Source: Blasia pusilla (Eukaryota). Taken from it: a stretch of 64,000 nucleotides of DNA. Below are positions 4,938 to 58,300 of the stretch, in pieces. The notes beneath the pieces were generated by a model. That model was not told where the DNA came from. It made no database searches and saw nothing but the letters and a program-made list of their open reading frames with translations. A program made the translations under genes and the position numbers. The stretch spans positions 42,780,001-42,844,000 of the forward strand of contig CM114271.1 of NCBI GenBank assembly GCA_050084515.1, given 5' to 3'. The stretch's first letter is position 1. The number at the start of each line of letters is the position of its first letter.

Positions 4938-6124
4938 TAGCGTATGCCTTCATAGATCGAGTGCTGAGTCATAACGGCGCACCAACTGAGGTGTTGATAG
5001 ACCAGGGTACAGAGTTCCGTGGGGAGTTTCAAGCCTTGTGTGATCAGGCACCGATCGACCACCGCACTACTTCGCGACATCATCCTGAAGCGGATGGACT
5101 AGCGGAGCCGGTTGTGCAGACGGTGAAGAGAAGATTATGTAAGTATGGCTTGCAGAGAGGTCACCTAGGAGATTGGGACCTAGAGTTTCCGTGGTTGGCG
5201 ATGGGATACACATTCAGCAGGCAGACATCCTTAACGTCTTTCTCAACGTACTTGCTTTTGTATGGCCGAGAGCCAGATTTACCTGCGACCATTCGTCGAG
5301 ATGTTGGTGAGGTGTTGAACCTTGATGACCTTGATGTATAGATGCGAGCATGTTCTCAAAGGGCTGAGTTGTTTTGGAGAGTGATGCCCATGGCGTTTGA
5401 GAACTTGGCGATTGCGCAACATCGGGATACATTGAGGTATGCGACTATTTGAGGAGGTGGTTATCGACCTACTATCGTGAGGTTTGATCAAGGAGACTAT
5501 GTCTACTTGCAGCAGACGGCACCCCTGACCTTGGATGTGACTACAGGGCGCACCATCTTGAGAGTGCATGAGATTTTGCCATCCAGTGTTCTCTTATTGG
5601 AGGGACTTGATGGTATGGTTTGGATGGACCATGTGCGTAGCTGTGCGCCATGTCATCTTCCGAACATTAACGGTATAGTTGATCCGAGCTTAGCAGTAGT
5701 TTCTCTAGGCTTGAGATGTATGTTGTGTGGTTCCGCCTATGGTGTAGCCTCTATGCTAGTCTGTGATGGATGTTCGAGAGGATGGCATATGGCATGTGTG
5801 ATGCCACCTCTCACTAGGGTTCATGAGGGACGATGGATGTGTCCCAAATGTACATAGCGTAGGTAGTTCTACATTCCGACTTGTATCTCTGACATGAATG
5901 ACAAGAAGGCAACTAACGATGGGGCCACATTAGCACCCGGCCTTCTTGGTCTTAGCGTCTGAGAGATGTATGTCATGGTAGGTAGGGATAGATGGTTATC
6001 TGAAGTTAGAGGGACCTAACCACCAGCTAGGGGGGTGATTGGAGATATTTTGGTATTTCTTGTCTTGTTGTTTGGATGCCATGAGTTAGCATGGGATCGT
6101 GCGTGTTTGTGTATGTGCCCGACA
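4938..6124 (+). mobile_element. 5'-truncated copy of the DNMT-Gypsy family: integrase core, PHD finger, G-tract, repeat B
   Basis: Collinear with ~53475-54688. Shows integrase DQGTEF...ADGLAE and an intact PHD (CMLC...CDGC...WHMAC...WMCPKC, ~5717-5854). AGGGGGG at 6029-6035 is followed by repeat B (6038-6124, with a ~40-bp internal deletion) ending CGACA. Confidence 0.9.
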
Positions 6125-7982: not shown

Positions 7983-8064
7983 CGTTCCTCCCGTTCGTCG
8001 TTTGTCACGCACGACGAACGGGAGGAACGTTTGTCTCGCTCGTCGTGCGAGACAAACGACGAAC
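7983..8064. repeat. Overlapping inverted repeats (alternative hairpins)
   Basis: 7983-8001 pairs with 8011-8029 (19 bp, perfect). 8028-8039 pairs with 8047-8058 (12 bp, perfect). 7993-8017 pairs with 8040-8064 (24/25). Confidence 0.9.
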
Positions 8065-20686: not shown

Positions 20687-20754
20687 CCGGTTCAAAATCC
20701 GAAGTTACCGATTGGCCATTCCCGGCCAATCGGTAACTTCGGATTTTGAACCGG
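20687..20754. repeat. Perfect 31-bp inverted repeat with 6-nt loop
   Basis: CCGGTTCAAAATCCGAAGTTACCGATTGGCC-attccc-GGCCAATCGGTAACTTCGGATTTTGAACCGG. Confidence 0.95.
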
Positions 20755-30600: not shown

Positions 30601-33600
30601 ATAGAGATAGGAACTGATTTGCTGATTGTGTACAAGCTGAAATCATGGATGGTCTAGCTGATGCTAGCTCTGACTTTGTACAAGGAGATACTTCTGCTGG
30701 TCAATCATTTTCTCATGCCAGTGACTGAAATCTAGCAAAACTCTCACCAAGTCGGTAGGAGCGGGTCAGTTTTGGTAATCCTCTCACAAAAACTCATACG
30801 CAACAGATTGTGCACATAAATGACATGTCTTAACATTTTCCTATCAGAGTCAAATTGCTTACCGCTACAAGAGACTTCTCCAAAGCTTCTGTAACCATCC
30901 TATCCTGTCCAAGTTGACAAACAACTCCATATAAGTAACCTAAATTTAGAAAGTCCTAGCAGACGCATTTTGGGATGTAACACCAGAAATTGAAGCCACG
31001 TAAAGATAATATAGTAGATGCAGGAGATAATTCCTGGAGAAGGGAGGGAACCATGTATAGTATAAGTATCCACCAATTCACTTTAAATTTATATTAATGC
31101 GAAAAAATCAAGTAAATGTCAAAGACCCCCCGGGTAACAAGGCCATCCTTATTCAGGCACCAGACCCGATAAGTTTTGTGAGCCCAGCTTGCAAATCCCC
31201 GATGCTAACACAGGTAAAGGACTGAATGTAGTCTCCGACGTTGCAAATTTCAGCATCAGTCAGTAACATCTAACCCCCGTTCGACAAGAGGAATTTGAGG
31301 AGCTAACAACTAGAAAACATCCCCTACAGTCTCTCATGCTTACCACCCAGCTTGCAATTCCAGGTAAGTCAGTCACATCAACCCCATAGTTGAAAATAGG
31401 TTTTGCAACCATTCTCAAAATCGGGGCCTCTGAAAAGCATAATCGTAGTCGTTGTACCACAGGCCACCCACTGACAAACCTCACTCCCACTCGAAGCTGC
31501 CAATTGATACCAAAAGGAAAATGAGAAGAAATGACAAAACCATAGAGGCAGTGGATCAAATCTCGCAACTAAAGGAATAAACATAATCATGGGTAGGTAG
31601 TTTGGTGTCCATTTCCAAGCAAAGCACTGTTAATCCATGGCTACAGTCTTCAGCCCACCAAGCTGTCCATCATTACTTCACTAGTAATGAACCCCGACAG
31701 AGCAACTTTAACAGCTCAAAGATAAATCTTTGTTAACACTTTAATTTTACATTTTCTTGTGGAACAAAGACACCATACCTTGCCTTCAAATTGCATGTTG
31801 GAGATGTGAAGTTTAGTCCAAAGGCCAAGTCCAACGCGCCGTTTCATTTGGACTGCTATGACTGCAGACATATCTGTGGCAGCTACAAACTTCATTGCCA
31901 TCTCCAACACCTGCTCTCAGCAGGAGTCAAGACCATCAGGAATTACTCGGATGTATGCATATTTTCATTTTCTTGGAGCAACTTCACCTGACATTGCAAG
32001 CACTCACCAAGTGATCCCCATCTGTAGGGTGGCGCCCAGCACGAAACATTGAAAAAACCGGGGGAGTCCTCCCCAAATATGTTTCTTGTAAAATCACTTT
32101 TTTCTGAAATAGAACAAAGTTCAGGGCAGTCGTGAGACAAGTTGACCAAAAAATAGGCTAAAGCAAATACTAGAGTACATGGTGTGTAATCTTAAGACCT
32201 GACACATGAAATTTGTAAACGTGCCATGGCATGGCGATTCATAGAACGACATGTGCCTATCTGTTCATTAAATAATTCAGTATCATAATTTCATTGAGAG
32301 ATAGAGATAACATCACCGAAAAGTATACACGACTGCAATTAGTACCATGACATGGCTACCCACTATCAAGTAAGTTTTCCGCATCTGTCTAAAACTACCT
32401 GAACGAATGCCGCAGCATATGAAAATTTCACACCCTCTTGCCAGACGATTGAGGATGATTCTAGACAACCAGGCGAGTCCCACAATGAAATGTTGTACAC
32501 AACTAATAATCATTTAACATCTGGAAATACCACATGAGCAAAGTTAACGCACCGCTGTCCAGGGTTTGTACTTGTCCATGAACCAGGGAGCAAGAGCCAT
32601 GAGAACTTTCTGGGATACGAACTGTTCCAAAAAGACTGGCCAAATCGCCTCGATAGCAGCATTTAGCCACCGTCCGGTTTCCGTATCAGACACCAACTGC
32701 CAACACACTCATAATTAGAGTAGGAAGTAGTACATTTTGATGCTCTCTCACGAATCTATAGACAAGGCAACGCATATCATGGCAATGCGCAATGACGAAG
32801 GACGAGGACCTCAAGACAAGTACCCCCTTTCTGTCTTGCGTCTTTCTTTCTTCACTCCGAATCTTTCTCTCAATTTTTTGCCGCATGCTGCCTTCAATCT
32901 ACACCACAAATCACGCGAGAATGTTAAGCTCCATAGGAAACCTCGATCACTCATGGCTTCATTGTCGTGCCTCGACAGCTATACATGTCTGCGAATTGGC
33001 CGGAAAGGTTTTCATAACGAGATCGTATCCAATTGTCCATGAAGTATTACAGATGGGAAAATGGCGACCGGGGAAAGCTTGCGAGTCTCAAACTCTTGAA
33101 TTCGCCGAAACGTGGCGGAAAACCTCTTCCGCTAATTATTGATCGGCAAAACGTTCGTTGATTATTCTAGCTTTAATATAGAATCGACAAGAGCCTCTTC
33201 ATGCCTTTCCAATCCACACTGTATTGAGCTCCGAGATACCAACTCTGCTACATCCACGCCGACAGTGGATCCATCGTCGCGGAAAACTACACTGTTCGAA
33301 TTGTTCATCGTATGCAGGCGGTTGTTCTCAAAGAAGGGCATGATAAACAAATTCGCAGCCAACGTCCACGTTCCCCTACAACTGAAACTACTGAAGGCGG
33401 CCAATATTCCACACAATTCGGCAGCAATTGTTGATTCCACCGTACCACGAAACGAGGAATCTGCAAATGTAGAGCTGCTTATCAAGTGGGACACGTACGT
33501 GATAAAGATAAAGAAATCCCACTGTGAAGACGAAGAGTAAGTTCAACTCGTGACGAGCGGCGATCCATCCCACGACTAGCACGAGGGCAACGTGAAAGAG

Positions 33601-35171: not shown

Positions 35172-35904
35172 TTATCAAAAATAAAATACTAATGATAAGA
35201 ATTCGAATACATGATTAATTTTGAATTTTGAAAGAAAAAGTAAAATTATGTTTGTAGATAACTTTACATCCTTGATCCCTAATCCAAATACTCGTTTGAT
35301 TCATTGGACTAGTTAGGACCATCATGGGACCGTGCGATGCACAATCCACTCCACGGTCCCTAAGCGCCCCGTTCCCGGTCCCTAACTTTGAATGTTACTA
35401 AAAGGAAGCCCATAGATTGCCCCGGTCTCGCATTTAATGCGAGATCCGGTACCTTCAGCAAGCAGGTAGTTAAAAAAGAATTTGGCAACTAAATAACAAA
35501 GCCCCCTCATACCATCGTGCAATGTTGGTAGGATAGCGGACATGGTCATGATGTACGGGTGCACAGACCTGGGTTCGAACCTAGAACTGCTCATCATTTT
35601 GGTACTCCCTCCTCACTTGTCTGCCCGCGTCCAAGCTGCCCGGTCTCGCATTAAATGCGAGACCGGGGCAATCTATGGGCTTCCTTCTAGTAACATTCAA
35701 AGTTAGGGACCAGGAACGGGGCGCTTAGGCACCGTGGAATGGATCGTGCATGCACCGTCCCATGAAGGTCCTAACTAGTCCAATGAATCGAACGAGTATT
35801 TGGATTAGGGATTAAGGATGTAAAGTTATCTACAAATATTATTTTACTTTTTCATTCAAAATTAATCACGTGAATTCTTATCATCAGTATTTTATTTTTG
35901 ATAA
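35172..35904. mobile_element. Foldback/MITE-like element with ~270-bp inverted arms
   Basis: 35172-~35449 is the imperfect reverse complement of ~35640-35904. Each arm ends internally in the hairpin CCGGTCTCGCATT-N-AATGCGAGA(T)CCGG. Spacer ~190 bp; no coding capacity; TSD not identified. Confidence 0.75.
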
Positions 35905-40249: not shown

Positions 40250-43200
40250 TATACAAGGTTTTTTTAGGCACAAGCTTTGCTCTATATTGTCACATAATGG
40301 AGGTGGTTTTGAGAACCTCACTTGCAGTAATTATGAATCCATTAAGTGGGAGGATGATTTTCGTGGTCAAGTGCAAAGGGAAGCGGAAGCATAGAGGAGG
40401 AAGGACAACTCAAAGAGGGATGGCCATGAAGCACTTGACCACGACAGAGTTGAGGGAGCATGTGGGAAAGTTGAACATTCGATTAAGGAGACAATGTTGG
40501 CTTTTGGCTCTAACATCACAACGAATTTGTGCCTTGAGTATTAGGTGAAAGAAACTAGAAGACATGTTAGGATCCGGAGTAGCTGCAAATAGGAAAATTT
40601 TGAGACAATTTCTCAGGAACATAGTGAATAGACATAGAGATGGGGCATTTGGTGGTAAGGAGGGGTTGTGGGATTTCTCCAAAGATTTGGCTAAGAATTT
40701 GTAAAGAGTGTTCAAGGTTTATTGTTATAATAAAAAAACCAAAGTCTTTTCCCAAGCCATATTTCAGTTTGGGAGTGGGCAAGTTGCCCACTACTTTTAG
40801 GAAAACTTGGGAGGGGAAAATGTGAAGACCTTGAAACGTGACAAAGAAAAAAATACCACCCTTGAGAGTTGGGGTGAGAAAAAGAGATATTCAAAGAGGT
40901 CTCCCGAGTACTACTTGCATCAGAACAACTAATTGGAATTGAGGAAGATATACCTTTAATGTTCGTTGAGGATGAAACAAGGATAAAAGAAAGGCCAATG
41001 TGTATTTGAATCTTTGGAGTCACTTCACCTTGATATATAGATATATGGGTATGCACTATCATGATGGTTATACTACTTTGCACATTTATTTGTCATGTCT
41101 ATTGTTCTTTATTGGGCTTGTGTTCTAACTTGATATTGTTGTTGTGATAGATGGGAGGCTAAATATGAGACTTTGATTGGTTTTTTCCGTCCCTCGGAAA
41201 AACATACATGCAAGTATACATGCTCTTTTGGCTTGGAAGTACTTTTTGGGGAAGATAATAGAGATATGACAAAATTGTGAGTATTTTTTAGAAATATGTC
41301 AAAGGTATGTATGCTACAATAGTACTTGTGAATCCTTTGCATGAGAAAATGACAAAATTGGAGCTTTATGCCACCGCAACTTATAATCGATTCAAAGCAG
41401 ACAAGGTGAGAGAGCATTTGGTGCAACTGAAATCCATTTGGGATAAATATTGCACAACAGATGTTGGTCCTATATTGTGGAATGCTTGTGATGGTGATGC
41501 TCATCGTAGGAAATTAATGATGGAAGATTATACTGATGTGAATGGTTCTTTTCCAAGGTACAAGGTAGGGTGGGAAGGGTGGTAGTACTTTATGTCCATT
41601 CTTCCAAATGGATACTTGTATGGCTTTGGAGATATCACGTCTTTTAGGATAGATCGGTGAGATGTAGTAGAGCGCCTTCATGAGTAGTGGATGACAAGCT
41701 CAATAGGTCGAGGATGACCTGTTGAGGCCCTAGGAAATCTAAGAGAGTAGGTTTCCCCTTCGTTTCGGCTCATTTGGAGCCATATTGAAAAACTTACTAT
41801 TTTAGGTAAGTACCCTTTTGAGTATATGCTTGAGTTTCTATTTTTGGTAAATGGCCTTTGACCTCCTACATCAGGTCAAGAGCCAAGGAGGTGACTTGGG
41901 AGAATAGGTTACCATGGAGAGAGCTTGGGAGAGGGGAGGGGTATACCTCAAGGAGAGAGAGCTTGAGAGCTCATTCTCTCTTTGTTGAACCTCTTGGCAT
42001 GAGGCGGCGGAGCTATGGTACCTTGCCTTGTGAGTGTAACCCAAGCCACTCATTAGGAGAGTGGGTTTGGTTTGACATGAGAGAGAGTGCACACCTTTGA
42101 GAGCTATGGTGTGAGATGGTGTAGAGAGAGATTGGATCTTACTTTATTGGATATATTTTAGTACTTCTAGTCTCGTTGTTTGGATGCCATGAGTTTGCAT
42201 GGGATCTTGCGTGTGTGTTCGGTGACAACAATGCATATTGTGTAGCGATGTGTATGCGCACGACAGAGACCAAGATCCACCACACAATGGCAAAAAGGGT
42301 ATTAACCCATTTGATAGATGTGCTTCTATGCTAGTGTTTGGTGACCAACATGTGTCATTGTCTTACATGACATCTATTTATAACCATTATAAAATTGAGG
42401 AGCATCGCTTGAATTGGGATGATTTGAATAGGACCGACACGCAAAATTGGACTAGCCCACAACGGATAGCATCCATGAGAGTGCAAGCCAGGCTACACCA
42501 CATGTTTGAGCGGCAAGATGTTTGACATAATAGAAGCTTTGACATAATAGAAGCTTTGGGACTAAGTTGTACCTTGAGATTTTTGCAAATTACATTGACA
42601 TTTTCTTCTCTGTTAAGCATGACTTGCAAACTCGTATAGTATTGGCATTTAAGGTATCTTGGTTTCACCATTTATGGAGGCTATGGTTGAGATATGATGA
42701 CCATTCTATGACGGGGAATACGTGATGTGTCACATGAAAAGCCTGAATAGAGACATGATCTATATTCATGCTTTTCATGATATCAACATATGCATGTCTT
42801 GTCATTTAATTGTACTCTTAATTTGTGCATTTTGAGACAAGTTTCCATATTTGCAAGTTCCACTTTACTTGCTAGGATCTCATTGTTGTGAGAATTTTTT
42901 CAACAAGGTAGGTGGCATGAGTGGTCATGAAAGAAACTATGATTTTGGATATCTATTAGATAGTGGAGTAGGAGTGAATCAACTGGTTGGCTTAGAGTAT
43001 GAACCAGAAGGATTAAAGATACGTTGCTTTCATCATAAGCAAGATCATGTTTGGGCAAAATTTCATCCTCTTAGTAAGGGAGATCAGGCTCCAAATCTAT
43101 TTTGATTATTCATTGGTTGGCACTAATGAGCTCATTGTTGATGCTCTTAAAGAAGGGTTGGATGCAACAAAAGAGCTTTTGCGGTTGTTGAACATGTCTC

Positions 43201-44190: not shown

Positions 44191-45018
44191 TGTTTATGTT
44201 TGAGACATGTTGGATTCAATCCTTTTGTGGATTGTGCTTACAATATAGTTGACGCTATTGAACTATGAGTAGGATAGTGGGAGGGAGTAGACTAGGGGGA
44301 TGGGAGATTGGCTGACTGAGCTTCTTGCTAAATTAGGAGTTCAATTCCCCTCTATCATAGTGCAAGGACAATATGTTGGATGTTAATTACGGCCTCTACA
44401 AGTGTCGTGTGTTATAAATTCTTGGTCCTGGCGGCTCTACGTTGTGGTTTGTAGTTTTGGATGGAGAGGCCATCTAGCGGTGACTCTATGCTACGTGTCA
44501 CTACAAGAATGGCCATACTAGGAACTAGATCCTCTAGACCAAGAGCATCCTAGGGCAAGCCTTGCGGCTCTGCTCCCTGACGCCGCGTGCGGAAGTTTGG
44601 CAGCCATCTCCACAATATTCTCACGCTCGATCTGCTTTGCTTCATAATATCGGCCGTAGAGCTAGCACGTTTGGTCTGTTACTTCTTGGTTTGTGCGATG
44701 GAAGTCTCGAGAATGGTACGCTTTGCACTAAACTTCCAAGCTCCCACCCTGACACTCTGCCTGCCAATTGCATTTGCTAGTTTGGGCGCTCAATGTGGTT
44801 TTCCTTTCCATCTCCTTTCATTGACCGACAGAGCTTCTGATTTCATCCGAATCTGCTCTTGCGCTCTTGATCAGTTACCTTGGCGCAAGTCACTCTTGGT
44901 CCTGGACTTTGGATTAGCCCATTTTACATTCAACAACTCTTTGTCTTTGTTACGCTGTGGTGCTCATCAAGTTAGTTATCGCCGCTTGAGCAGTTCCGGT
45001 ATTTTTCGAGATCGCTGC

Positions 45019-45516
45019 TGTCACGTCTTTTAGGATAGATCGGTGAGATCTAAAAGAGCGCCTTCGTGAGACACGCCCAGTAGGTTGAGGGTGACCTGCT
45101 GAGGCCCTTGGAAACCTGAGATAGCAGGTTTCCCCTTCGTTTCGGCTCATTTGGGGCCATATTGAAGAACTTATTATTTTAGGTAAGTACCATTTTGAGT
45201 ATATGATCGACTTACTATTTTTGGTAAGTGGCCCTTGACCTCCTACACCAGGTCAAGAGCCAAGGAGGTGACTTGGGAGAATAGGTTACCATGGAGAGAG
45301 CTTGGGAGGGGTATACCTCAAGGAGAGAGAGCTTGAGAGCTCATTCTCTCTTTATTGAACCTCTTGGCATGAGGCGGCGGAGCTATGGTACCTTGCCTTG
45401 TGAGTGTAACCCAAGCCTTTCATTAGGAGAGTGGGTTTGGTTTGACATGAGAGAGAGTGCACACCTTTGAGAGCTATGGTGTGAGATGGTGGAGAGAGAG
45501 ATTGGATCTTACTTTA
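45019..45516 (+). repeat. Repeat A1
   Basis: Matches 54691-55204 with scattered substitutions and two short deletions. Homology stops at GGATCTTACTTTA and is not followed by B. Confidence 0.95.
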
Positions 45517-45531
45517 CAAAGAGAGAATGAG
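45516..45531 (+). promoter_or_regulatory. Putative self-priming PBS
   Basis: ACAAAGAGAGAATGAG is the reverse complement of CTCATTCTCTCTTTGT inside repeat A (16/16 at 55028-55043 and 41970-41985; 15/16 at 45340-45355). That site lies ~28 bp downstream of a TATA-like GTATACC (45311). Confidence 0.7.
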
Positions 45532-46084
45532 AGAGTGAGAGAGATTTATGGGGGAGCTCGCTGGTCACTCGCATTTTTTGCAGGTTGGGGATTGTGTTCC
45601 CCGTTCAGCGGCTCATGGGAGTGCTCACCGGAGCAAGGACTGCTTTCATTATTCTTTGCATTTGCCGATTTTTCGTGTGGAAGAGTGGTGCGCGGAAGCG
45701 CTGCCCATATTTCTGATAGGGATTGAGTATGGGGGCGGGTTGCCCCATGCTGGTGCTCTCGGGAGCACCATGTAGCTTGCTGATTTGTATTTTTACAGAT
45801 GTTACATTTTCGTTGGGAGAAATCAGCGCGGGAGCGTTGCCGAATTTTGTGTAGGAGAAAGAGACATTGGGCTTTACGACAGTCCCCGTCAGTTTTTATT
45901 GAAATGTCCGATTCTAAATATTTTTTAATTCTGGCGTAGATTGTGAAGCTGTGCACGCTGTGCAATAAACAGTGGACAATTTGGAGTTGCGAGCAAAAAG
46001 TTATGGTCAATCTTGTAAAGCTGCCATTGCTAGGCGATTTTTAGGGTTAAATTGTGCAAACCCTAAATCAGCCGCCACACCGGC

Positions 46085-46270
46085 GGTGGCGGTCGCCATC
46101 ATAGTCACCATCACCGTTCGACGGTCAACCATCACCATCACCGTCGATAGTCAACCGTCATAGTCAACGGTCAACCATCGCCGTCGACGGTCAACCGTCA
46201 TCGTCATCGGTCGGCCGTCACCATCAGCGGTCAACCGTCACTGTCAACGGTCCACCGTCCATTGTCCACC
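46085..46270 (+). repeat. Low-complexity CCGTCA/CGGTCAAC short tandem array in the element's 5' UTR
   Basis: Reiterated CACCATCACCGT, ACGGTCAACC and CCGTCATC motifs. Confidence 0.8.
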
Positions 46271-47060
46271 CTTTGGGTGCCTTTGCCGCCATTACGGAGT
46301 GGAGGGTCTTCCACGACGTTCGTTGATTCCTTGACTTGGGTCGCCACCACGTACTTTGTTTTGGCCGCCACCGTCATCGCAGTTTCTTCATCAACCAGTG
46401 ATGGCATATGACCTCCGGTTATGGTGTTTGAGTTTTGATTTCATGCTGCTATGTTGTGATTGGTAGCCGCTTGATGACGATCGAGTATCGTGCCGCTCGT
46501 GGCCGCACCGCACCGTCTCGATCGCGGAGCCGCACCGTCATTGTGGAGCAGAGTGGGGGATTATTATTGATTGAGGAGGGTATGCCGCCGAGTGCCGCAT
46601 CCCACCATCGAGGGCCGTGCCGTTCGTAGCCGTTCCGTGCCGCCTGCAACGCCGCACCGTTCCGTTGGGACCGCACTATCTATCGAGGAGTTTTGAGCAG
46701 CATCAGTACGGGAGGAGTATGACTTGCTGATTGGAGGAGTTGTCTCCACGATCGAGTTGGGGTCGAGATTTGCAGTTGCTGAGGAGCGACATCGACATGT
46801 GTTCAGGTTACCCATTCTGGTCCTTTACCCTACAGGTGTGAGGGATTCTAGGATTTATTTGGGGATATTGGGTGTGTGGATGCTGAGAGCATCATTTATG
46901 TATGTGGTTTAGGGGACATAGACTTGTGTGGGATGTCCGGAGTTGAAGGTAGGTTGTCGATGAGATGATAGCTTGGTCGATTTGCCGCACCACGCCGCGT
47001 GTTGCCGCACGTTACACGTCTCGGGGAGAGAGAGTGTAGATCAAGTGCCGCATGTTTGGG

Positions 47061-48400
47061 ATGAGTGATTGAGGGATTCCTCACGAAGTTCAGAGTGATC
47101 AGGTGAGAGGGGCACGAGGGTCATCACGCAGTCCGTTCGGGACTTTGAGAGGCGAGGTGGTGAACCCGAGAGTAGCTCTAGAGGTTTTACGCGGAGTGGC
47201 GCGAGGTTCCGAGGGTCTCCACGTGAGGGACCACCTCGACCTCCTTCTGTGTCATCGTCAGACGAGGGGGAGGGTGTAGAGGAGTTTGTGAGCACATTGC
47301 CACACTTTGTGAGTGGTCCTACCAGTTGGGCGTACGAGATGGACGACCGGGGTAGAGGACGCGAGGTTTTCAGTGCGATGAGGCACGATTGAGTTGCACG
47401 ATTTTATAGCAGAGTTTAGGAGTTGGTGCAACTCCCAGCGGGCCAGGAACTCTAGAGAGTTCAACCCATTTACAACATGGAACGGTATGTTCCAGCATTT
47501 AGAGGGGGCGCCCGTGGACGATTACCATGAGTTCTCTCAGAGATATGCATGTGAGGTCGAGGCGTGGAGGCTCTACTATGACCCACATTATGTGTCATGG
47601 ACGGAGCCGTTCCCAGATGAAGAGGAGGAGTCGGGAGAGGCTACTTCCTCTTCCACTAGTGACGTTTTAGGAGGGGTCACTCGCACGGGAGCACTTGCAC
47701 CGTCTAGTCGGGTTCGTCCCAGGTTCAACCCTGTGGTTGAGTTCTTTGTTGAGTTGAGGGCGAGCTACCAAGGGGTACGGATGGAGAAGTTGCGGAGCAT
47801 CCACGACTTCCAGAGGCGCCCGGGTGAGAGTTTGCGTGAGGCTTACACTCGCTTGCGCCGGTTGATCAACGTCACTCAGGGGGTGACAGAGACTCAGGCT
47901 ATCCAGTCATGGTACGCGATGCTGGACCAGACCCTACGGACACAGGTGTGGGAGGGGGTGATTCTTATGAACACCTCCCCTACGTTGAGAGATGTTTTTA
48001 GGACCGTTGAGAACATTGAGCGCAACATGGCGGAGGAGATCGTAGCCACCATGGGTTTTGGGCGAGAGCAGTCACGATTGTCTGCACCACCCGTGCAGCA
48101 ACGTGGACTCCGAGATAGGTCGACTGTGGCACCACGAGCTCAGGGAGGATATCGGGAGACCGTGCCACAGAGACCTACGCCTTCATATGCGGCTCAACAG
48201 TAGCTGCCTACTATTACTTGTTGGTCATGTGGTGGAGCCCATCATCAGCGCGATTGCACTCGTTAGGGTCATGGACGTGTGCCTCAGCATGGAGGAGGAG
48301 ATGGTCTTTGCACAGGAGGTTATCAGTGTGACTATAGTCGAGGTATGGTCATACACACGCCAGGTGTTTCAGTTTACATCCTGAGTTACGTCCGGACCGA
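47061..48400 (+). pseudogene. Gag (retrotransposon gag domain + zinc knuckles)
   Basis: ATG 47061 is in frame with ORF 47394-48203 (FFVELRASYQG...DFQRRPGESLREAYTRLRRL). CWSCGGAHHQRDC at ~48219-48257, plus a second degenerate knuckle. In-frame stops present. Confidence 0.8.
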
Positions 48401-49089
48401 GGGCCAGAGAGGGCACCAGAGCGAGTAGCCGGTCCGGGTGCACCTAGAGATCGTGCACCAGGTGGTCCCGTTGGGGGACGAGGAGCTGGAGTTGCCCGAC
48501 AGGGTGGTGGAGCTGCTCATGGAGGAGGTAGAGTACCACCACCTAGACGCGCCGAGGGAGATGCCGGACGTGAGGCTGGGATGGTCGCTCGAAAGACCTC
48601 TGAGGAGCGATTGCCGCTATGGCATTGAGGTTACCCGATGCCGGATCCGTGGCATCGACATCATATGGAGCATCCAGAGATCTCGAGGATCTTGGATGGA
48701 TGTGTGGGGTTGCCCAGATGGAGGCCACCGCAGTTGTGACGCGTGGAGCAGCCGCAGAGTTGGATCCACAACGAGGGGAAGCCAGAAGACAGACTAGGCT
48801 TCCTCAGTCTTTCATGTTGTCCGAAGCGAAGAGGATCCCATCGCTGGGTCCTCATCAAAGTTCCTCGAGAGTTGGTGATGTTATTGGTGTGCAGGCACGA
48901 AGGGCAATGGGAGAAGCGAGTGCAACGACTCCTATTGTTGATGCTCAGGAGGGGCATGTGTCGAGCACGTTGTTGGGGGCGGCCACCGTTGTGTACCGCA
49001 CTCCTTTATTTTCTGCTTCGATGTTATGACGTTGGGGGGTACGCCCGCCAAGGCTTGGCTGGCTGGCCGCTTCACTATGTGAGCGCGAG

Positions 49090-49640
49090 TTGGAGTTCTG
49101 CATCACGTTCAGAGGTGATTGCAGAGGAGGTGATGGACCTGCCCTTGAGCGGATGCTCGGGCCGCCCACGTCGATTCATGGTAGGTCGGTCGCTAGGATG
49201 GCGGAGATGCCCGCTAGACCCGCGATAGAGCGTGCCATGGCTTCTCCTGGTGTTGTGTTGCTGGATAACCGAGGAGAGGTCTTCCAATTGGTGAGTCCTG
49301 GAGGTAGAGCTTTTAGTCCGCAGCGTGTCTTGTTGGATTCAGGAGCGCAACCCTTGATGTTGGGGAAAGTGTCATTCAGAGGATTGGGCTTGACGAGAGC
49401 CGATGTGGAGCGTTGTCCATTTCGGATATAGACATCCTTGGGTGGAGCGAGTACCACACAGTATATCACCCGACAGGAGGTCGTGGTGAGGATTCGCCCG
49501 GGACATCCTACAGATGAGTCCGTGGTGCGCGCCAAGGTGATAGTGACTGATGCAGAGTCCTACGACGTCTTGGTTGGTAGAGCAGTGTGTACCCGATGGG
49601 GTTTTCCCTGGATTATTGGGAGGAGTCAGCGTCCTACAGA
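49090..49640 (+). pseudogene. Aspartic protease
   Basis: RVLLDSGAQPLMLG catalytic motif (~49324-49365) and YDVLVG C-terminal motif. Confidence 0.85.
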
Positions 49641-50039
49641 CCAGGATGGCAGTTAGGTGATGGGCGCCTTAGCTCATTACCCGTTCGATTCACAGGTGCA
49701 GTGATCGAGCAACGGCCAGGAGAGATGGCGACCTTAGCAGCATTTAGCAGTGCCATCACTTGGCCTAGTGATTTGATTGAGGGACATGTCCATGCAGAGG
49801 ATACTCCCGTTCCTGACATTTCTATGGAGAGGAGTGTTATGGTAGCTGCATCATTCCGTGGAGGAGAGGTGCCGCTGTGGGGCTCGACTGAGGAGCTTCA
49901 ATGATTGGCAGATGAGCACGTGCAGACCGCGTGGAGCGAGGCGTTTGCACCAGAGCGTGACGGGTCTGAGGAACCCGAGGTAGCAGGGAGTGCTACGATG
50001 ACACCCTTGGATACCACAACCATTGTGTGGTGTACCCCG

Positions 50040-50975
50040 GAGGAGGGTATTTGAGTGTTAGATCTCTTTGGAGGGATTAGCACCGGGTTAGCTGCTGTTT
50101 TGCAGGCAGGAGTGCGAGTACAGCAGTACCTGTCTGTGGAGAGTGATGATGTTGCACGACGCGTCTCACTATGACATGTGTCGCAATTACGCCTACGTTT
50201 TCCCGACTTATTGTCTGCGTCCGCAGTACAGGGGTACCAGAGTTCCCTACCGAGGGATATTTTGTTGTTGGGGGCGCAGGACTTAGAGCGGGTAGTGACC
50301 ATTGATTTGGTCATTTCCGGTTGGCCATGTCAGGGCCAATCAAGTGCTGGACGAGGCAGCGGGTTGGCTGACACTCGGTCCAGGTTGTTTTGGGAGATGT
50401 TGAGGGTCTTACGGCAGTTGCAGGAGCACCAGTCTCGTTCTCCAGCCTACATTCTGGAGAATGTGCCGATCTTAGGAGACTCCAGGTCACGGATCATGAC
50501 GAGTGCTCATCAGGTGCGTGCCTGGATCGGCCTAGCAGTGTTCTTGGATGCGGCGAGTGTAGGTTCTAGAGCCCATCGCCCGCGTCTATGGTGGGCCACT
50601 TGGTGCCCCATGCGGTGTTATGGAGGGCGTATGCGAGAGTGGAGCGCCCCTCCCCTTTGTTAGTGGATTCCATTTCGATCCGGTCGCCGATCACAGCAAG
50701 CGGTGAGGCACGATGATCGACCACCGCCGTTGGTCAACAGTAGTCAGGGTAGGCAGCGCCGTGGCGCGCCTTGCCCACGTTTGTGAGTTTTCCCGCTTCC
50801 TATGCATACAAGGAGGCCGGTCCTGGCTTGGTTTGGGATGACCAAGTTCAGCGGTTGGTGGAGCCCAACGCCGACGAGAGAGAGTGAGCGATGGGATTTC
50901 CCATAGGAGTGACGGCAGTACCATCATCATCGGAGAGGCATCACGACGCCATGTCTTGGGTCAGCGATGGACTGA
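50040..50975 (+). pseudogene. C5 DNA cytosine methyltransferase domain (DNMT3-like) within pol
   Basis: Motif I VLDLFGGI (50055), II SVE, IV GWPCQG (PCQ 50325-50333), VI ILENV (ENV 50457-50465), VIII AHRPRLWW, IX/X ERE*AMGFPIGVT...RRHVLG (~50877-50960). In-frame TGA stops at 50052 and 50172; indels after ~50600. Confidence 0.9.
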
Positions 50976-51339
50976 ATCGCTTGACATGGATCCTCGGCCT
51001 TGGGAGTGGGCGAGGCGTCGTATGAGATCGCGACAGATCAGCCGGTTGTGTTGGTGAGCCCCATGCCTACCGAGACGGTGGAGGCAGTGGCTGGGGGCGA
51101 GACCCGAGGAGATATACGCACCAGGGGAGATCGGGAGAGACAATCTTGGACTTCTTGGGATGTTTTGCAGGTACGCAAGGAGATGATAGCCACAACATTG
51201 AGCATGGTTTCGGGCACTGCACGTGGAGGAGATTAGAGTTTGCAGTTGGCTGCAGGAGAGCGGCCGAGTGTTGTTGTTCGAGACGGGGTTGCACCATAGC
51301 AACCACCGATACCCGCGCCGGAGAGTCCTATCGTAGTCA

Positions 51340-52780
51340 CGATGGAGACTTGGGAGCCAGATATGGGCCCTAAGTTGACAGGAGGAGAGCGGCGCCGAAT
51401 ACATCAGTTCCTCAGGAGTTATAGGAGCTGCTTTCCGTTTAGCATGGAGGATTTGGGTACGTTGAAGGGAGCGAGGATCCGCATTGATTTGTCGAGTGAT
51501 ATGCCGATCTTCCGACGACCCTACAAGTACAGTGATATGGAGAGGGCTCTGATTCAGAGTAGGAGCCAGGACTTGGTTGGAGCAGGACTAGTGGAGATGT
51601 CGCATGGGGAGTATGCATCTGCCACTCTCATGCCCGCCAAGAAGGATGTGCATGGCAACTGGACGGATAGGCGGATGTGTGGGGATTACCGACCTATGAA
51701 TCGGCAGACGAAGTCCGATAGGTATGCCATGCCCACCCCTGAGGAGATCTTTGATGCGATTGGTCACGCAAAGGTCTTGATTCATTGATTTATGAGCCGG
51801 ATACCATCACCCCGATCAGATTGGAGGACAAAGTAAGACGGCATTTTGGGGCATCGATCCTCACGGGAAGGATTGTTTGTACCAGTGGCGGTTCTTACCA
51901 TTTGGGTTAAAGAACGCCCCGGCTGAGTTTCAGAGGGTCATGGATAGGATCTTGGCTGGTCTGGATTTTGCTAGGTGTTATATTTATGACATCGTAGTCT
52001 TTAGCGCCACGGTTGAAGAGCATGAGCAACATCTAGAGGAGGTGTTTCGACGATTGCAATTACATGGGCTGAAGCTACATCCGGGCAAGTGCAAGTTCTT
52101 CTACAACCAGATTGAGTACTTGGGTCATACAATATACCCAGGGGACCTTGGTGTTCAGCAGACGAAGGTAGAGGCTATCTCACGCATTCCACGCCCTACA
52201 GATGTGAGCCGTGTTCGCACATTCATGGGATTGGCGAACTTCTATTGGCGATATGTCAAGGGATTGATTCGATTATGGTCACTGACCTTGCTGACCAAGG
52301 TGGATCACGAGTGGCACCGGGGATGAGCAGGAGCGAGCATTTCAATTGCTCAGGACAAAGTTGGCGTCCGCACCCATCTTGAGGAGACCGATCGGGCGTC
52401 CTTTCGATTTGCACGCATTGGAGCATGTTGGGGCTTGGAGCGGTGCTCACCCAAAGCATGATGATGAGGGTAGAGAGTTCGTGGTGGCTTACGCTAGCCG
52501 CTCGAACAACGTTGCAGGCAAAGTATAGCTCGTATGAGGGTGAGTGCTTGGTGCGGTGTGGGCATCGCGCATTTCAGGTGTTACTTATTCGGCAACCCTT
52601 TACCATCATCATCGATCATCAACCACTGAAGTGGTTGATGGAGTCCGACAAGCTTGGGGAAGCTTGCCGGATGGGCTCTGTTGTTGCAGGAGTATGATTT
52701 TCAGGTGGTACATAGACTGGGGACGCTCAACCAGGATGAGATGGGTTGAGTCGTAACCCATGCCCGAGTCAACGAGATGC
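51340..52780 (+). pseudogene. Reverse transcriptase and RNase H
   Basis: YASATLMPAKKD...RRMCGDYRPMN...YAMP; LPFGLKNAPAEFQRVMD; YIYDIVVFS (YIDD mutated); EYLGH; GLGAVLTQ, VVAYASRS, YSSYEGECL, DHQPLKWL. Confidence 0.92.
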
Positions 52781-53099
52781 GGATCGGAGCTCGATGGCAT
52801 GGAGAGAGTGATGAGGAGTCGGTGCCAGGATGGCACGCGTCAGCCTATTTAGGCATGTTGGCTATGGAGAGCCAGAGTGTGGAGACTTCGATGGCGAGGT
52901 CTAGTGGAGAGTCCTTGGATCCTGAAACCAGTGAGGACACGACAAGTGGCCGAGATATTCATGATGATGGAGTAGTCTTAGAGTACCTTCAGATCTTGGC
53001 GACCTTGCAAGCACCATGGATGCTAGAGAGCGGGATCGGATCCTACAACGGGCCAGACGGTTTCGTTGGGAGGGGACACATGTTTTGAGGGTTTGGGAG

Positions 53100-54381
53100 G
53101 ATGGCAGAGTACGCGTAGCGCCGCATCCTTCGCAGAGAGCACGACTAGTGCAGCATGCCCATGAGGAGTTGGGTCACTTTGGGGTGAAGCGGACGATGCG
53201 GCTTGCTCCATTCAGTATTGGTGGCGAGGCATGCAGATTGGCGTTGAGTTTGTTTCAGGTGCATGGTGTGTGATCGGGTCCGAGCATCGTTCAATGCTCC
53301 GACTCCTCCGATTGCATCCATTACCGATCATGGGCTTAGGGTATAGATGGAGTTTGGATTTTGCGGGACCTTTGCCCTTGACGGAGCATCACAATCGTTA
53401 TGTGTTGGTGATGGTCGAGCACTTCTCAAAGTGGATCGAGTTGGTTGCATTGCCTGACAAAGCGAGTGAGGGAGTAGCTTATGCCTTCCTTGACAGAGTT
53501 TGAGTCATTATGGTGCACCGGTGAGGTGTTGATGAGACAGTGGTACCGAGTTTAGCGGTGAGTTCAGGCCTTGTGTGATCGGCGATCGACCACCGCCGCG
53601 ACCGCAGCGAGATCATCCCGAGGCGGATGGATTAGCGGAGAGAGTTGTCAGACGGTGAAGAGGGGTTTACGCAAGTATGGCTTGCAGAGAGGTCACCTAG
53701 GAGATTGGGACCTCGATTGCCATGGTTGGCGATGGGATACAAATTCAGCAGCGAGGCATCCTTAGCGTCTTTTTCACCGTACTTGCTACTTTATGGCGAG
53801 AGCCGATTTACCTCTGACCATTCGTCGAGATCTTTGGTGAGGTTTGGACCTTGATGACCCAGATGTATGGGTGCGAGCATGTTCTCAAAGGGCTGAGTTA
53901 TTTCGGAGAGTGATGCCCATGGCGTTCGAGAACTTGGCGATTGCACAACATCGGGATACATTGAGGTATGCGACTATTCGGGGTGGTGGTTATCGACCAA
54001 CTATCCGGAGGTTTCATCGGGAGATTATGTCTACTTGCGCAGACGGCACCGACGGCGTTGGATGTGATCAGAGGGCGCACTATCCGAGAGTGCGTGACAT
54101 TTTGCCATCGGGTGTTCTCTTGCTGGAGGGACGCGATGGTATGGTATGGAAGGATCATGTGCGTAATTGTGCGCCATGTCACCTTCCTAACATTGATGGT
54201 ACAGTAGATCCGAGCTTAGCAAGAGTTCCGCATGCTTGCGTTGTATGTTGTGTGGTTACGCCGGTAGTGCGCCACGATGCTAGTCTGTGATGGGTGTTCG
54301 AGAGGATGACATATGGCATGTTTGGCGCCACCTCTCACTAGGGTTCCTCGGGGGCGATGGATGTGTCCCGGATGTACCTGA
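53100..54381 (+). pseudogene. DDE integrase with C-terminal PHD finger
   Basis: HHCC zinc-binding region (HAHEELGHFG...C..C); WSLDFAGPLP...LVMVEHFSKW; GTEF; ADGLAE. PHD at ~54240-54378 (frameshifted here, intact in the 5717-5854 copy). Confidence 0.9.
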
Positions 54382-54551
54382 GTAGGTAGTTCTACATTCC
54401 GACTTGTGTATGTGACATGGATGACAAGGAGGCGACTAACGATGGGGCCACATGAGCACCCGGCCTTCTTGCTCTTAGCGTCTGAGAGATGTATGTCATG
54501 GTAGGTAGGGATAGATGGCTATATGGAGTTAGAGGGACCTAACCACCAGTT

Positions 54552-54560
54552 AGGGGGGCG
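54552..54560 (+). promoter_or_regulatory. Putative polypurine tract preceding B1
   Basis: AGGGGGGCG immediately before B1, conserved as AGGGGGGTG at 6029-6037. No purine tract precedes the TG of A2. Confidence 0.6.
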
Positions 54561-55333
54561 ATTGGAGATATTTTGGTACTTCTTGTCTCGTTATTTGGAT
54601 GCCATGAGTTAGCATGGGATCATGCGTGTTTGTGTTTGTGTTCGGTGACAGCGATGTATGTTGTGTAGCGATGTGTATGGGCACGACAGCTGTCACGTCT
54701 TTTAGGATAGATCGGTGAGATCTAATAGAGCGCCTTCGTGAGTAGTGGAGGACACGCCCAATAGGTCGAGGGTGACCTACTGAGGCCCTTGGAAACGTGA
54801 GATAGCAGGTTTCCCCTTCGTTTCGGCTCATTTGGAGCCATATTGAGGAACTTACTATTTTAGGTAAGTACCATTTTGAGTATATGATCAACTTACTATT
54901 TTTGGTAAGTGGCCCTTGATCTCCTACATCAGGTCAAGAGCCAAGGAGGTGACTTGGGAGAATAGGTTACCATGGAGAGAGCTTGGGAGAGGGGAGGGGT
55001 ATACCTCAAGGAGAGAGAGCTTGAGAGCTCATTCTCTCTTTGTTGAACCTCTTGGCATGAGGCGGAGGAGCTATGGTACCTTGCCTTGTGAGTGTAACCC
55101 AAGCCTCTCATTAGGAGAGTGGGTTTGGTTTGACATGAGAGAGAGTGCACACCTTTGAGAGCTATGGTGTGAGATGGTGGAGAGAGAGATTGGATCTTAC
55201 TTTAATTGAAGATATTTTGGTACTTCTTGTCTCGTTATTTGGATGCCATGAGTTAACATTGGGTTCATGCGTGTTTGTGTGTGTATTCGGTGACAGCGAT
55301 GTATGTTGTGTAGCGATGTGTATGCGCACGACA
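54561..55333 (+). repeat. 3' terminal B1-gc-A2-B2 array
   Basis: B1 (54561-54688) and B2 (55205-55333) are ~128-bp direct repeats flanking A2. The B1/A2 junction GACAGCTGTC (54685-54694) is a perfect palindrome. Confidence 0.95.
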
Positions 55334-58300
55334 CTGCCGCTCACAATTAGGTAAGCTTTCTTAGCTTTCGCTTATGTTCTTATTATCTTTACTCGTTGCT
55401 TGTGTATTTTTACCTTACTGATTACTAGATTACCGAAACCGGACGATTCCGAGAACTTCTACCTCGCCCAACTCTCTTCTTCTTGTCGCGTAGAAATTCC
55501 CAACCCCGAGGAGATGTTAACGTGAGAGCCTCACCGTTACATCATCCGCCGGATGCTCAGTCGTGCCTTTGGTTGGGGAAACAAATTCTTCATGTGCCCT
55601 TCGTCAAGTGGATTTCTCTGCCTACTCCAGTCTCCAATCTCTACCATGTCTTTCTCATCTCAATTTTTCCGACCGCAATAAATTCCTCAACATGTCACCT
55701 GCATCCCTGAAATCTTCAGACATTTTTCGCAGCCTTATCTTTCCACCACCTTCTTGTTGTCCCTGAAATCCACCTCGTACTGTACGATCTCCGTGAACAC
55801 GGTGTTTGCATTGTTGGATGGCATATGCATACGGTGTGTCAATAGATCTGAAACTGACATTAGAGATTGCATCCTTCCCCTTCTTGTTTCCCTTCCATGG
55901 CGGCTATTTCCAAGGGACCTCAACATTTTTTGACTATAATCGTGCTCGGAGCCGCCAACTATTTAGTCCATTTTCTTTGTTTGAGCCTTATGCTTCATTA
56001 ATGTACCAGATACGGCAAGCAATTGCGTTATGCTCTACCTCAAAAGCATTTGTTCTAAATAGGGAACTAGACCAACTTCGTAGAGATATGCCCCACTTGA
56101 GTGATGCGAGCTTGCATCACCATCTTTCTAAGTATTCAATTAGCCCCCAGATCCCAGGAAGCCCTGCATGGCATCGAAGGTATTTGAAAGATTTAAAGGC
56201 TTTGGCGCACAAATGGGGAATGCCATATTTTTTCTTAACACTAACTTCTAACAAAGTATCTGCAACAAGATGGAATGAATTTTATGATATTGAAGCTATA
56301 CTTGCCAAGTTTAACCCTGACTTCACTTGGCGTGATGCTCCAACTGAGTGTGCACTATTATTCCATACCAGACTCCACTCTTTTATATCTTCATTCAGTT
56401 TTTTAGGCCCACGTATCTTGGGAAGAGTTGCAGAATATTTGCTTTGTTATGAATTACAGGGCAGAGGGAGTTTGCATTGCTATATGATTTTATGGGTCTA
56501 TCCTGATGATGTTGGACGAATTACGTCAGAAATATGTTCATATATTCCATGTCCTGACCCCAATCTACATCTGCTCCATCCTAGATCTACCCTCAACCCA
56601 AGTGAAGAACTATTAAGCCTAGTGCTTAAGAAGATATCAAAGACTTGGAATCAAGAGTAGGTTTTGAAGACCGTACTACTAACTATCTCCAAAATGATTT
56701 GGGATCGGGATGTCACCCCTACTAACAGCAACAACGAGTATTGATGTTGTTTGTCTTGATGTAGAAGTTGTTACAGCTCATTTTGCTTTCAACATTCCGA
56801 TCCGTGGTGATATTCCATCTATGCATGCTACTCCAGATCCCTACATGAAACTTAAGGTTGCCCATGTGATTGTAGTTGATGATTTCTCAATGCTGACAAC
56901 AAAACTCTTGCAGATTATAGTCATGCGAATAAATGAAGTTGCAAAGTGCAGTAGCCAAAATCTGCTCGAAGGAAAGCTCCTCATCCTTGTAGGCCACCTA
57001 TGCCAGCTTTCACTGTTTGCAGCCACAAGGTTTCCAATTTATGTCATGGCTACCATATTACTTCCTCTAATTTCCTAAAGAGTGCACTCTCCTTTGAATT
57101 GGTTACACCTGTACGACATTCAAGTGATCCTCTTTATAATCAATTCCTAACTTCTATCAGATCTGCTATTCCAGCACAGGCCCAGATTGATGACAATCTA
57201 GGACCCTGTTTTGTGTCTCGGAATGAAGCTACAGATTTCATCACTTCTAACACAACAATCATTTGTAATCATTGTGATGATGTGGCCATGTTCAATCTCC
57301 TATCCCTCAGAAGAATTTTTGGAGATGCTTCTATTATCAAAGTGGACGTTATTTCTTACGCTCCTCCACAACCAGAATTTGATATTTGGTTAAATGATGA
57401 ATCTTTCCACCAACTACCATTCGTTGCGCTCCACTGTCGAGTTATGATTACATCTAATGTTAACTTGAAGTGCAAGGCAGCCAATGGATCTCTTGGTAGT
57501 GTTTGATCTTATCTATGAGAACAATGAGTTGGTTTATATTGTTATCATTCTTCAATCCAATGGACATTCTATCAAAATAGGTAGAATTTCTCTACTCTAA
57601 GGTATGACTCGTATCGTAAATATATCAAGAGGTCATTTCCACTTATATAAGGCTATGCCATGACTGCACACAAAATTCAAGGTTCCAATGTTGAAGGTCG
57701 TTATTTTCTGGTTGTTCAGTCAATTTTTGCATTGGGATTAGCCTATGGTATGCTATCTAGGGTAAAAAATAGAGATCTATTGCGCATATTAGGATCATTG
57801 GACCCTAATGGCTTCCTAGTAATTGGTCAGCGGGTTGCAAGTGTCTCTTAATTTTGTATTGTTACATTTTATGTAGCTTTTATATAAGCATATCGGCCAG
57901 AGCCAGCTCAAGCAAGGGACGTAGTGTCAGATCTGTTCCTCACTCACAACAAAATGAGTAGTTTCCTTTATATGACCATGAACCGAATCCAACGATTATG
58001 AGATCTTCAATCTCAGCGATAGAATCAAACCCCCACTCAATCACCAATACAGGTTAATCCCTATGCCTCCCTTCCCTCATTTTCTATATTGTCTTTTGTT
58101 GCTGTATCTAATTCATGACCCACATGTGCCCTCAAGTTACCTGGACTTTGCTAGCATGATACTTTCAGACATTCAAACACAGCCAAAGGAATTCAAGCCC
58201 AGGTTCATATTTCCCACAAAAAACAGATATAATACGTGGACAACCTAGGGATGGTTCCTGCCTTTTGGGAGCATGGTGTGACGGGAAGGCAGATCCAGAG

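Follow-up and report, generated by a model that had tools for sequence, protein, structure and literature searches.

A split-repeat Gypsy element in Blasia pusilla: evidence for self-priming and for probable insertion from end-joined cDNA

Introduction

The Gypsy element KnitGypsy-Dnmt3 of the alga Klebsormidium nitens (de Mendoza et al. 2018, PMC5890265) carries, besides its Gypsy domains, a methyltransferase related to Dnmt3 in Pol, and a figure-legend remark equates its repeats (A-coding-B-A-B) with those of DIRS retrotransposons. The accessible text and supplementary files of that paper give no primer-binding site (PBS), target duplication, attachment (att) site or replication model for it, and its supplementary figures may show more. 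Streptophyte Gypsy-DNMT3 elements are also mentioned, without structure in the part available, in a second source (10.64898/2026.05.21.726589); the name KnitGypsy occurred in a single paper of the literature searched. Here we describe an element of this type at positions 45019 to 55333 (10,315 bp) of a 64,000-nucleotide stretch of Blasia pusilla DNA (GenBank assembly GCA_050084515.1, contig CM114271.1, positions 42,780,001 to 42,844,000, forward strand), hereafter called the window. It is probably a self-primed Gypsy element of the green lineage that inserts from complementary DNA (cDNA) whose two ends have been joined.

Self-priming has been described for Tf1 and Tj1 (PMC4600332) and for plant Tcn1 and TAR elements (PMC6317226), and the available part of the latter study predicts it for 12% of 13,566 plant elements. 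In Tf1, Tf2, Tj1 and Tcn1 the PBS lies directly after the long terminal repeat (LTR) and pairs with the first bases of the element's RNA, and priming is tRNA-free; the window element resembles them in a PBS at this place that is complementary to the predicted start of its RNA. The order A1...B1-A2-B2 and solo A+B remnants are known from Ngaro, PAT, VIPER and TATE (PMC6681497). The window element shares both features with these but has a DDE (Asp-Asp-Glu) integrase, a polypurine tract (PPT), TG...CA ends and 4-bp target duplications, and no recombinase. TOC1 is a further split-direct-repeat retrotransposon of the tyrosine-recombinase kind. Phygy (Neumann et al. 2019, PMC6317226), a non-chromovirus Gypsy of a seed-free plant, resembles the window element in its 4-bp duplication and its length of 8-10 kb; it differs in its tRNA-Trp priming (81%), its preference for NCGN targets, its ordinary LTRs and its lack of an extra domain, and NCGN was found at none of 15 left target sites of window-family copies. 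No account of priming or integration in the split-repeat Gypsy clade was found in the literature searched, which did not extend to Repbase, theses or subscription journals, and the available parts of PMC2864245 and PMC2836005 added nothing on this clade. Self-priming in itself being known, what is probably new is that the insertion ends do not coincide with the ends of the cDNA.

Results

Inserted copies begin with A and end with B

The window element is a Ty3/Gypsy element with DNMT3-like and PHD domains; the label DNMT3-like rests on PMC5890265 and not on a DNMT tree of the window sequence. Flanked by CTGC, it is built in the order A1, PBS, gag, protease, C5 methyltransferase, reverse transcriptase (RT), RNase H, integrase, PHD, PPT, B1, GC, A2, B2 (Table 1), and its reading frames are broken by stops and frameshifts. 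Its family (family 1) is abundant in the 390-Mb genome, where a 24-mer from A has 3,876 exact matches, a lower bound on the number of A copies, and where 846 exact A-PBS and 765 exact A-B junctions are found.

All 30 best-matching 5′ ends start directly with A after unrelated flanks, with B absent upstream. Thirty A copies taken in genome order comprised 13 A-PBS (none of them after B), 10 PPT-B-A-B, 5 solo or deleted A-B and 2 rearranged copies. The occurrence of a B-A-PBS permutation was judged from these two samples rather than from a genome-wide count. Since B is absent upstream of A1 in 30/30 and 13/13 cases, the split layout is the normal product and not the result of a deletion. The complete arrangement A...PPT-B-xx-A-B, where xx is a 2-nt spacer, was found in the window and in 12 of 20 copies followed to the 3′ end; the other eight consist of four in which the 3′ end was never reached, two cut short or rearranged, one that had lost PPT-B1 by internal deletion and one ending at B1. 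Copies with both ends numbered 15 (14 of the 20 plus the window element), and 14 of them carry an exact 4-bp target duplication, the remaining one having a mismatch. Solo A+B units (L057, L059 and L073) are likewise flanked by exact 4-bp duplications. Because the layout is systematic and the duplications surround A...B, the insertion ends are the start of A (TGTCA) and the end of B (GACA); the PPT and the PBS set the start of B and the end of A.

These results divide the B+A LTR model of the initial annotation in two. As the LTR of reverse transcription the unit stands, B following directly on the PPT and A stopping right before the PBS, so that the right end of A is, as had been proposed, the U5 (unique 5′ region) boundary. 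As an inserted terminal repeat it fails, the insertions being bounded by TGTCA and GACA with 4-bp duplications.

The uncut site GACA-GC-TGTC persists at the B1-A2 junction. In 24 copies the spacer reads GC (8), AC (8), GT (6), AT (1) or AG (1); this variation lies at the top of, yet inside, the range of CHG deamination sites, and no special mechanism is proposed for it. C-to-T change over window positions 54561-55203 and 39 copies follows the order CHG (0.114), CG (0.049), CHH (0.023), which is unusual for an element with its own methyltransferase.

Some copies deviate from the standard layout. One (L003) ends at the first B and retains its duplication, TATC, and an older copy in the window (4938-6124) also ends at B; such copies may be insertions of one-LTR circles or products of recombination between B1 and B2. 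A single locus (L022/L050, G000:C11, about position 1784376) reads B-A-PBS followed by 156 nt of leader and then by a piece that begins one base before the predicted primer and stops at an internal GACA of A; it lacks a duplication. Copies with a longer A, which at first looked like a second family, turned out to carry an unrelated insertion, a different repeat lodged in A's GA run.

The A-B joint is variable

If the cDNA has the form B-A...B-A, the A2-B2 junction must come from end joining. Among the first 100 of the 765 exact A-B joints, 67 have no insert and 33 have one: A in 25, G in three, and AC, ACAA, AG, ACAG and T in one each. All but one of the 33 read as the start of the PBS, which begins ACAAAG, and/or as the last base of the PPT, which is a G adjoining B. 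Such remnants of primer or PPT that were not removed are also seen at retroviral circle junctions. At the A-PBS junction, examined as a control, 97 of the first 100 of 846 have one length and three vary. On a tree of 24 copies the state of the joint is not clustered (7 changes versus a shuffled mean of 6.9); in the same 24 copies a B lineage marker is concordant between B1 and B2 in every case, and A1 and A2 share 35 of 43 two-copy variants. The variable joint points to cDNA ends that would be joined anew in each cycle, a DDE integrase then cutting inside the left LTR.

A different origin of the joint appears unlikely, though it is the strongest competitor: in a self-primed element, B2 and the A-B joint could be copied from RNA that extends through B2, or arise by an extra templated strand transfer, in which case fresh joining would be unnecessary and integrase would meet near-ordinary ends. 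Such a route would account for the single permutation seen; two thirds of the joints share one fixed form, and RNA reads do cross the A-B joint (19 in run X7). However, the inserts are remnants of PBS and PPT and are tenfold commoner than variation at the templated A-PBS junction, the joint state is not lineage-bound, no PPT precedes A and no primer site follows B. The same heterogeneity of the joint is moreover present in two other families (families 2 and 3, described below).

The PBS pairs with the predicted 5′ end of the transcript

The sequence ACAAAGAGAGAATGAG at 45516-45531 directly adjoins the end of A1 (45515). Positions 45340-45355 are the reverse complement of this sequence apart from a single mismatch, an A at 45354 in A1; the perfect 16-mer is present in A2 (55028) and in a solo copy (41970). 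The first base of the PBS is opposite the 3′ base of the primer, a geometry that fits priming. A weak TATA-like motif, TATACC at 45312, precedes the primer by 28 nt, and a search for TGG in 45511-45545 found none. The initial annotation had reported the complementarity, the A1 mismatch, the TATA-like motif and the lack of a TGG-type tRNA PBS after A1, and this observation is confirmed. The pairing also supports its placement of R, the region repeated at both RNA ends, inside A; transcription would start at about 45340.

The longest antisense match is 14 nt for A1 and 16 nt for A2, compared with maxima of 11 and 10 nt in 500 dinucleotide shuffles of A, none of which reached the observed values. 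Pairing is perfect in 29 of 44 A-PBS copies from the same genome, picked by motif search from loci L001-030, L081-120 and L201-230; 12 have one mismatch and three have two. In the predicted 5′ RNA the primer/PBS duplex is present in both the minimum free energy and the centroid folds, as 14 bp for A1 (z -1.96) and 16 bp for the copy L005 (z -3.40).

We then compared families. A scan of metagenome contigs gave 80 loci, and the 12 with terminal repeats around RT were examined and form the basis of families 2 and 3. The A...B-A-B layout is present in 10 of these 12, the second B being off the contig end or undetected in the other two. Family 1 has the primer/PBS CTCATTCTCTCTTTGT at TATA+28. Family 2 (loci L122, L124 and L135) has AACATAGTTCTTTGAG(T) at TATAAA+26 with 16-17 nt of pairing, as read in L135 and L124 (RT 67-72% identical), and family 3 (nine metagenome loci; RT about 38-49%) has TAGTTTTTCTAGA at TATAAAA+30/31 with 13 nt. 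The A repeats of the three families are mutually non-alignable, and in each the PBS abuts A. Families 2 and 3 keep the TGTCA/GACA ends and the 2-nt spacer (GC or a decayed form), with exact 4-bp duplications in L154, L163, L173 and L185 and duplications off by one or two bases at others. Shuffle tests of the pairing gave 0, 0, 0 and 1 of 500. Compensatory change between the two sites, the check that the initial annotation had put forward, is found across families, three distinct pairs having kept their pairing. Since primer and PBS are wholly different in two distant families and yet still pair, 26-31 nt after a TATA box, self-priming is well supported, and the window element very probably primes in this way.

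By comparison, it is very improbable that half of a tRNA or some other small RNA of the host acts as primer, or that the match is a chance pairing of low-complexity GA/CT sequence. The family 1 primer is indeed pyrimidine-rich and A contains GA runs, and the tRNA set available for comparison is partial (51 unique sequences, 19 anticodons; Met, Leu, Ser, Val and Tyr are missing, so that the Copia element of the window could not register as a positive control). But the TGG that would match a CCA end is absent, the best internal tRNA match to the PBS within this set is 8 nt (9 with G-U) versus 16 nt for the self match, and none of the 500 shuffles of A equalled the pairing. A chance GA/CT match, which the initial annotation had named among the results that would undo its reading, is further contradicted by families 2 and 3, where pairing occurs at the same place in sequences that are not GA/CT repeats.

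Stranded RNA reads give sense coverage of A, PBS and leader on L005; the runs may come from a related organism and so place no start site. Most reads were 90-95% alike, and many cross from B into A. Genomic junctions fall exactly at the predicted start in 2 of 21 cases (L022/L316 and L299); at a control site the count was 0 among the 30 examined out of 36. The excess lacks significance, and L299 shows microhomology of the kind present at other internal deletions.

In 59 copies (region of L348-L377, G000) the PBS is prolonged by antisense A sequence from just upstream of the primer. A sense A precedes the PBS in at least 23 of the 30 examined. The run-ons extend over 5 to about 340 nt and resume at many different places, and four of the 30, all short, are joined to the start of B. 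These copies show primer and PBS pairing in real molecules, an outcome that DNA repair could also produce. Besides run-ons, the rearrangements at the primer/PBS pair include inversions that have the 16-bp pair as their limits, and ends with a second, inverted A start.

The element belongs to a green-lineage clade with DDE integrases

Among named proteins, those of the liverworts Calypogeia (77%) and Marchantia (75%) come closest, followed by unnamed sequences and by Klebsormidium, Closterium and chlorophyte proteins; most of these relatives carry PHD and some the methyltransferase. The RT clade holds 29 of 44 rows with an SH-aLRT support of 99 in a quick tree. Klebsormidium RTs group there with the window element, although they are not shown to be KnitGypsy-Dnmt3 itself. 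Among integrases with readable motifs, the second D and the E are separated by 34 residues in 59 proteins; in 10 proteins of more distant members the spacing is 35. The initial annotation had invoked the Tf1/sushi group. Membership is not borne out: the integrase C-terminus carries PHD instead of a chromodomain, the chromodomain PF00385 was found in only one of 120 relatives, an outsider, and RT forms a separate clade, in a tree where chromoviruses are represented by a single chromodomain row, neither Tf1 nor Tcn1, on a long branch. The element is of the streptophyte Gypsy-DNMT3 type. Like KnitGypsy-Dnmt3 it encodes a methyltransferase, here between protease and RT, but its host is a plant with liverwort proteins as closest named relatives and at least 3,876 A copies. 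The Tf1 primer is 11 nt long; the window clade differs from Tf1/sushi in a primer of 13-17 nt, in PHD in place of the chromodomain and in its split repeats.

Two pieces of this clade (methyltransferase plus RT) are the Marchantia polymorpha entries Mp2g26090 and MARPO_0091s0058 (P0009 and P0010), which are not ordinary host genes. Gypsy-7a_cRei of Chlamydomonas, an active Gypsy with a PHD, has a right LTR that ends in 8 bp missing from its left LTR (10.1101/2022.06.16.496473); it may be a related permutation.

TG...CA ends, 4-bp duplications and the loss of a 2-nt spacer are signatures of DDE enzymes. They stand against insertion of end-joined cDNA by a tyrosine recombinase acting in trans, as in split-repeat DIRS-order elements, which is even a little less probable than host-RNA priming. 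That scenario draws on the A1...B1-A2-B2 order, equal to that of Ngaro, PAT and VIPER (PMC6681497), but the duplications here are of varied sequence, an rve integrase with D, D and E is retained across the clade, and a recombinase family is listed for none of the 120 relatives. Least probable of all, and already refuted, is an ordinary B+A LTR element that lost its 5′ B and gained a 3′ B from a neighbouring insertion or mis-assembly: B+A does have proper PPT and PBS boundaries, but the layout recurs, with matching 4-bp duplications around A...B in 14/15 copies, in other genomes and, in the repeats described by PMC5890265, in Klebsormidium.

Discussion

In textbook LTR elements the primer and the PPT define the ends that integrase processes. 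In the window element they do not, and the following route would reconcile its cDNA ends with its insertion ends. RNA would start in A1, some 28 nt past the TATA-like motif, and extend at least through A2. Its first 16 or so nucleotides would pair with the PBS, a step strongly supported by the comparison of families, and would be cut as in Tf1 and prime the minus strand. An R-to-R transfer to A2 and priming at the PPT would then yield an ordinary linear cDNA, B-A-PBS-coding-PPT-B-A. In each cycle, as the remnants fossilised at the joints suggest, the end of A and the start of B would be joined, either by ligation into a two-LTR circle or by RT jumping from one end to the other, the joint often retaining 1-4 bases of primer or PPT. 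Finally, the DDE integrase would cut after CA on both strands in the palindrome GACA-GC-TGTC of the left LTR, drop the 2-nt spacer and insert the product with a 4-bp duplication, giving A...B-GC-A-B. A staggered cut after CA would leave both ends with a 2-nt 5′ overhang, resembling normal 3′ processing. We consider it likely, from the sequence comparisons, that the last two steps, fresh end joining and the internal integrase cut, operate together.

Circle junctions of IS3 and IS911 are opened by a DDE enzyme. Foamy virus integrase is reported to cleave palindromic two-LTR circle junctions (PMC1180852). In these systems the joint of the ends is itself cut, whereas in the proposed route it would stay intact and a templated site about 130 bp inside the LTR would be cut instead.

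Several observations weigh against the proposal. In a symmetric two-LTR circle the two att junctions are equivalent, yet only the left-cut product is seen. A simple circle cannot explain everything, since B before A-PBS was found in 0/30 and 0/13 cases, with the rearranged L022 as the one instance; our guess is that RT may jump from the end of A onto the start of B and leave a branched left junction that integrase nicks, which would produce a left-cut bias. Of the 33 joint inserts, 25 are a single A, maybe from slippage or as an inherited variant, and the 24-copy tree is poorly resolved, with 2 of 21 inner branches well supported. As to priming, the compensatory change seen between families is lacking within family 1, with none in 44 copies and all mismatches one-sided. 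Some family-3 copies (L149, L154 and L169) pair over only 8-11 nt or have a decayed PBS. The run-on copies could stem from DNA repair between the 16-bp inverted repeats, and RNA reads from three runs and one contig set show no pile-up of starts at the primer on L005.

For the clade as a whole, from algae to bryophytes, we lean with somewhat less assurance towards the same scheme of self-priming, obligatory end joining and a cut by a D(34)E integrase at an internal palindromic att site in one LTR only, which would uncouple the ends of reverse transcription from those of insertion, a route undescribed for LTR elements. If it holds, joined cDNA ends, usually a dead-end side product, would be the normal substrate of insertion, the debated integration of two-LTR circles could be tested in a natural system, and a model would be at hand for the origin of split repeats in DIRS-order elements. 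LTR finders that require two full TG...CA LTRs and a duplication, as does the method given in the available part of PMC6317226, should miss or mis-bound such elements. Yet the elements account for thousands of repeat copies in this genome, and each element carries a DNA methyltransferase domain.

Features of the element and its surroundings

Table 1. Coordinates in the window of the Gypsy element and of related copies.
Feature	Position	Strand	Basis or remark
Left target-site duplication CTGC	45015..45018	+	identical 4 bases at 55334-55337
Repeat A1; TGTCA start is left insertion end; promoter part plus R/U5	45019..45515	+
Weak TATA-like TATACC, 28 nt before primer	45312..45317	+	families 2 and 3 have TATAAA(A) in the corresponding position
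Predicted self-primer, first 16 nt of RNA; mismatch at 45354	45340..45355	+	predicted start site
PBS complementary to self-primer	45516..45531	+	846 exact A-PBS junctions genome-wide
gag-like coding stretch	47382..48203	+	weak Retrotrans_gag match (E 0.004, under cut-off) in matching open reading frame of sister copy L041
Aspartic protease region, LLDSG motif; limits approximate	49320..49620	+	sequence reading; protease Pfam matches on relative P0043
C5 cytosine methyltransferase, VLDLFGG/GWPCQ/ENV; right limit approximate	50052..50900	+	Pfam DNA_methylase, E 8e-12
Reverse transcriptase and RNase H; limits approximate	51500..52750	+	Pfam RVT_1 and RT_RNaseH on sister copy P0001; copy alignment
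DDE integrase with H2C2 finger, D(34)E; limits approximate	53100..53800	+	Pfam rve on sister copy P0002; spacing count
PHD finger at integrase C-terminus; stop inside in window copy	54241..54378	+	translation; PF00628 on relatives
Polypurine tract	54548..54560	+
Repeat B1, distal U3 (unique 3′ region); PPT-adjoining start, GACA end	54561..54688	+
Uncut internal att junction GACA-GC-TGTC, 10-bp palindrome with 2-nt spacer	54685..54694	+	also in families 2 and 3
Repeat A2; primer without mismatch at 55028-55043	54691..55203	+
A2-B2 joint, one extra A in window copy; putative joint of two cDNA ends	55201..55209	+
Repeat B2; GACA end is right insertion end	55205..55333	+
Right target-site duplication CTGC	55334..55337	+
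Solo A+B unit of same family; decayed left end, no clear duplication	41635..42265	+
Older partial copy with integrase end, PHD, PPT and B, followed by unrelated DNA	4938..6124	+

The leader of the element contains a 20-bp tandem array at 46100-46260. In copies elsewhere in the genome (L081-L092, G000), a (GAAT)n-ended repeat recurs as an insert in A, within its GA run and about 60 bp from where A ends; this repeat is also found after GA runs elsewhere and is probably a LINE (long interspersed nuclear element) tail on the other strand. Just to the right of the Gypsy element, at 55797-57506, is a Helitron-like helicase region (Pfam Helitron_like_N, E 5e-19). A Ty1/Copia element at 25249-30715, with two identical 681-bp LTRs and the 5-bp duplication TGCCA, is a very recent insertion; its PBS, GGTTATGGGCCC, we take to be of the half-tRNA-iMet type. 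The window further contains a 284-bp inverted repeat pair at 35172-35904 and two short palindromes at 7981-8076 and 20687-20754.
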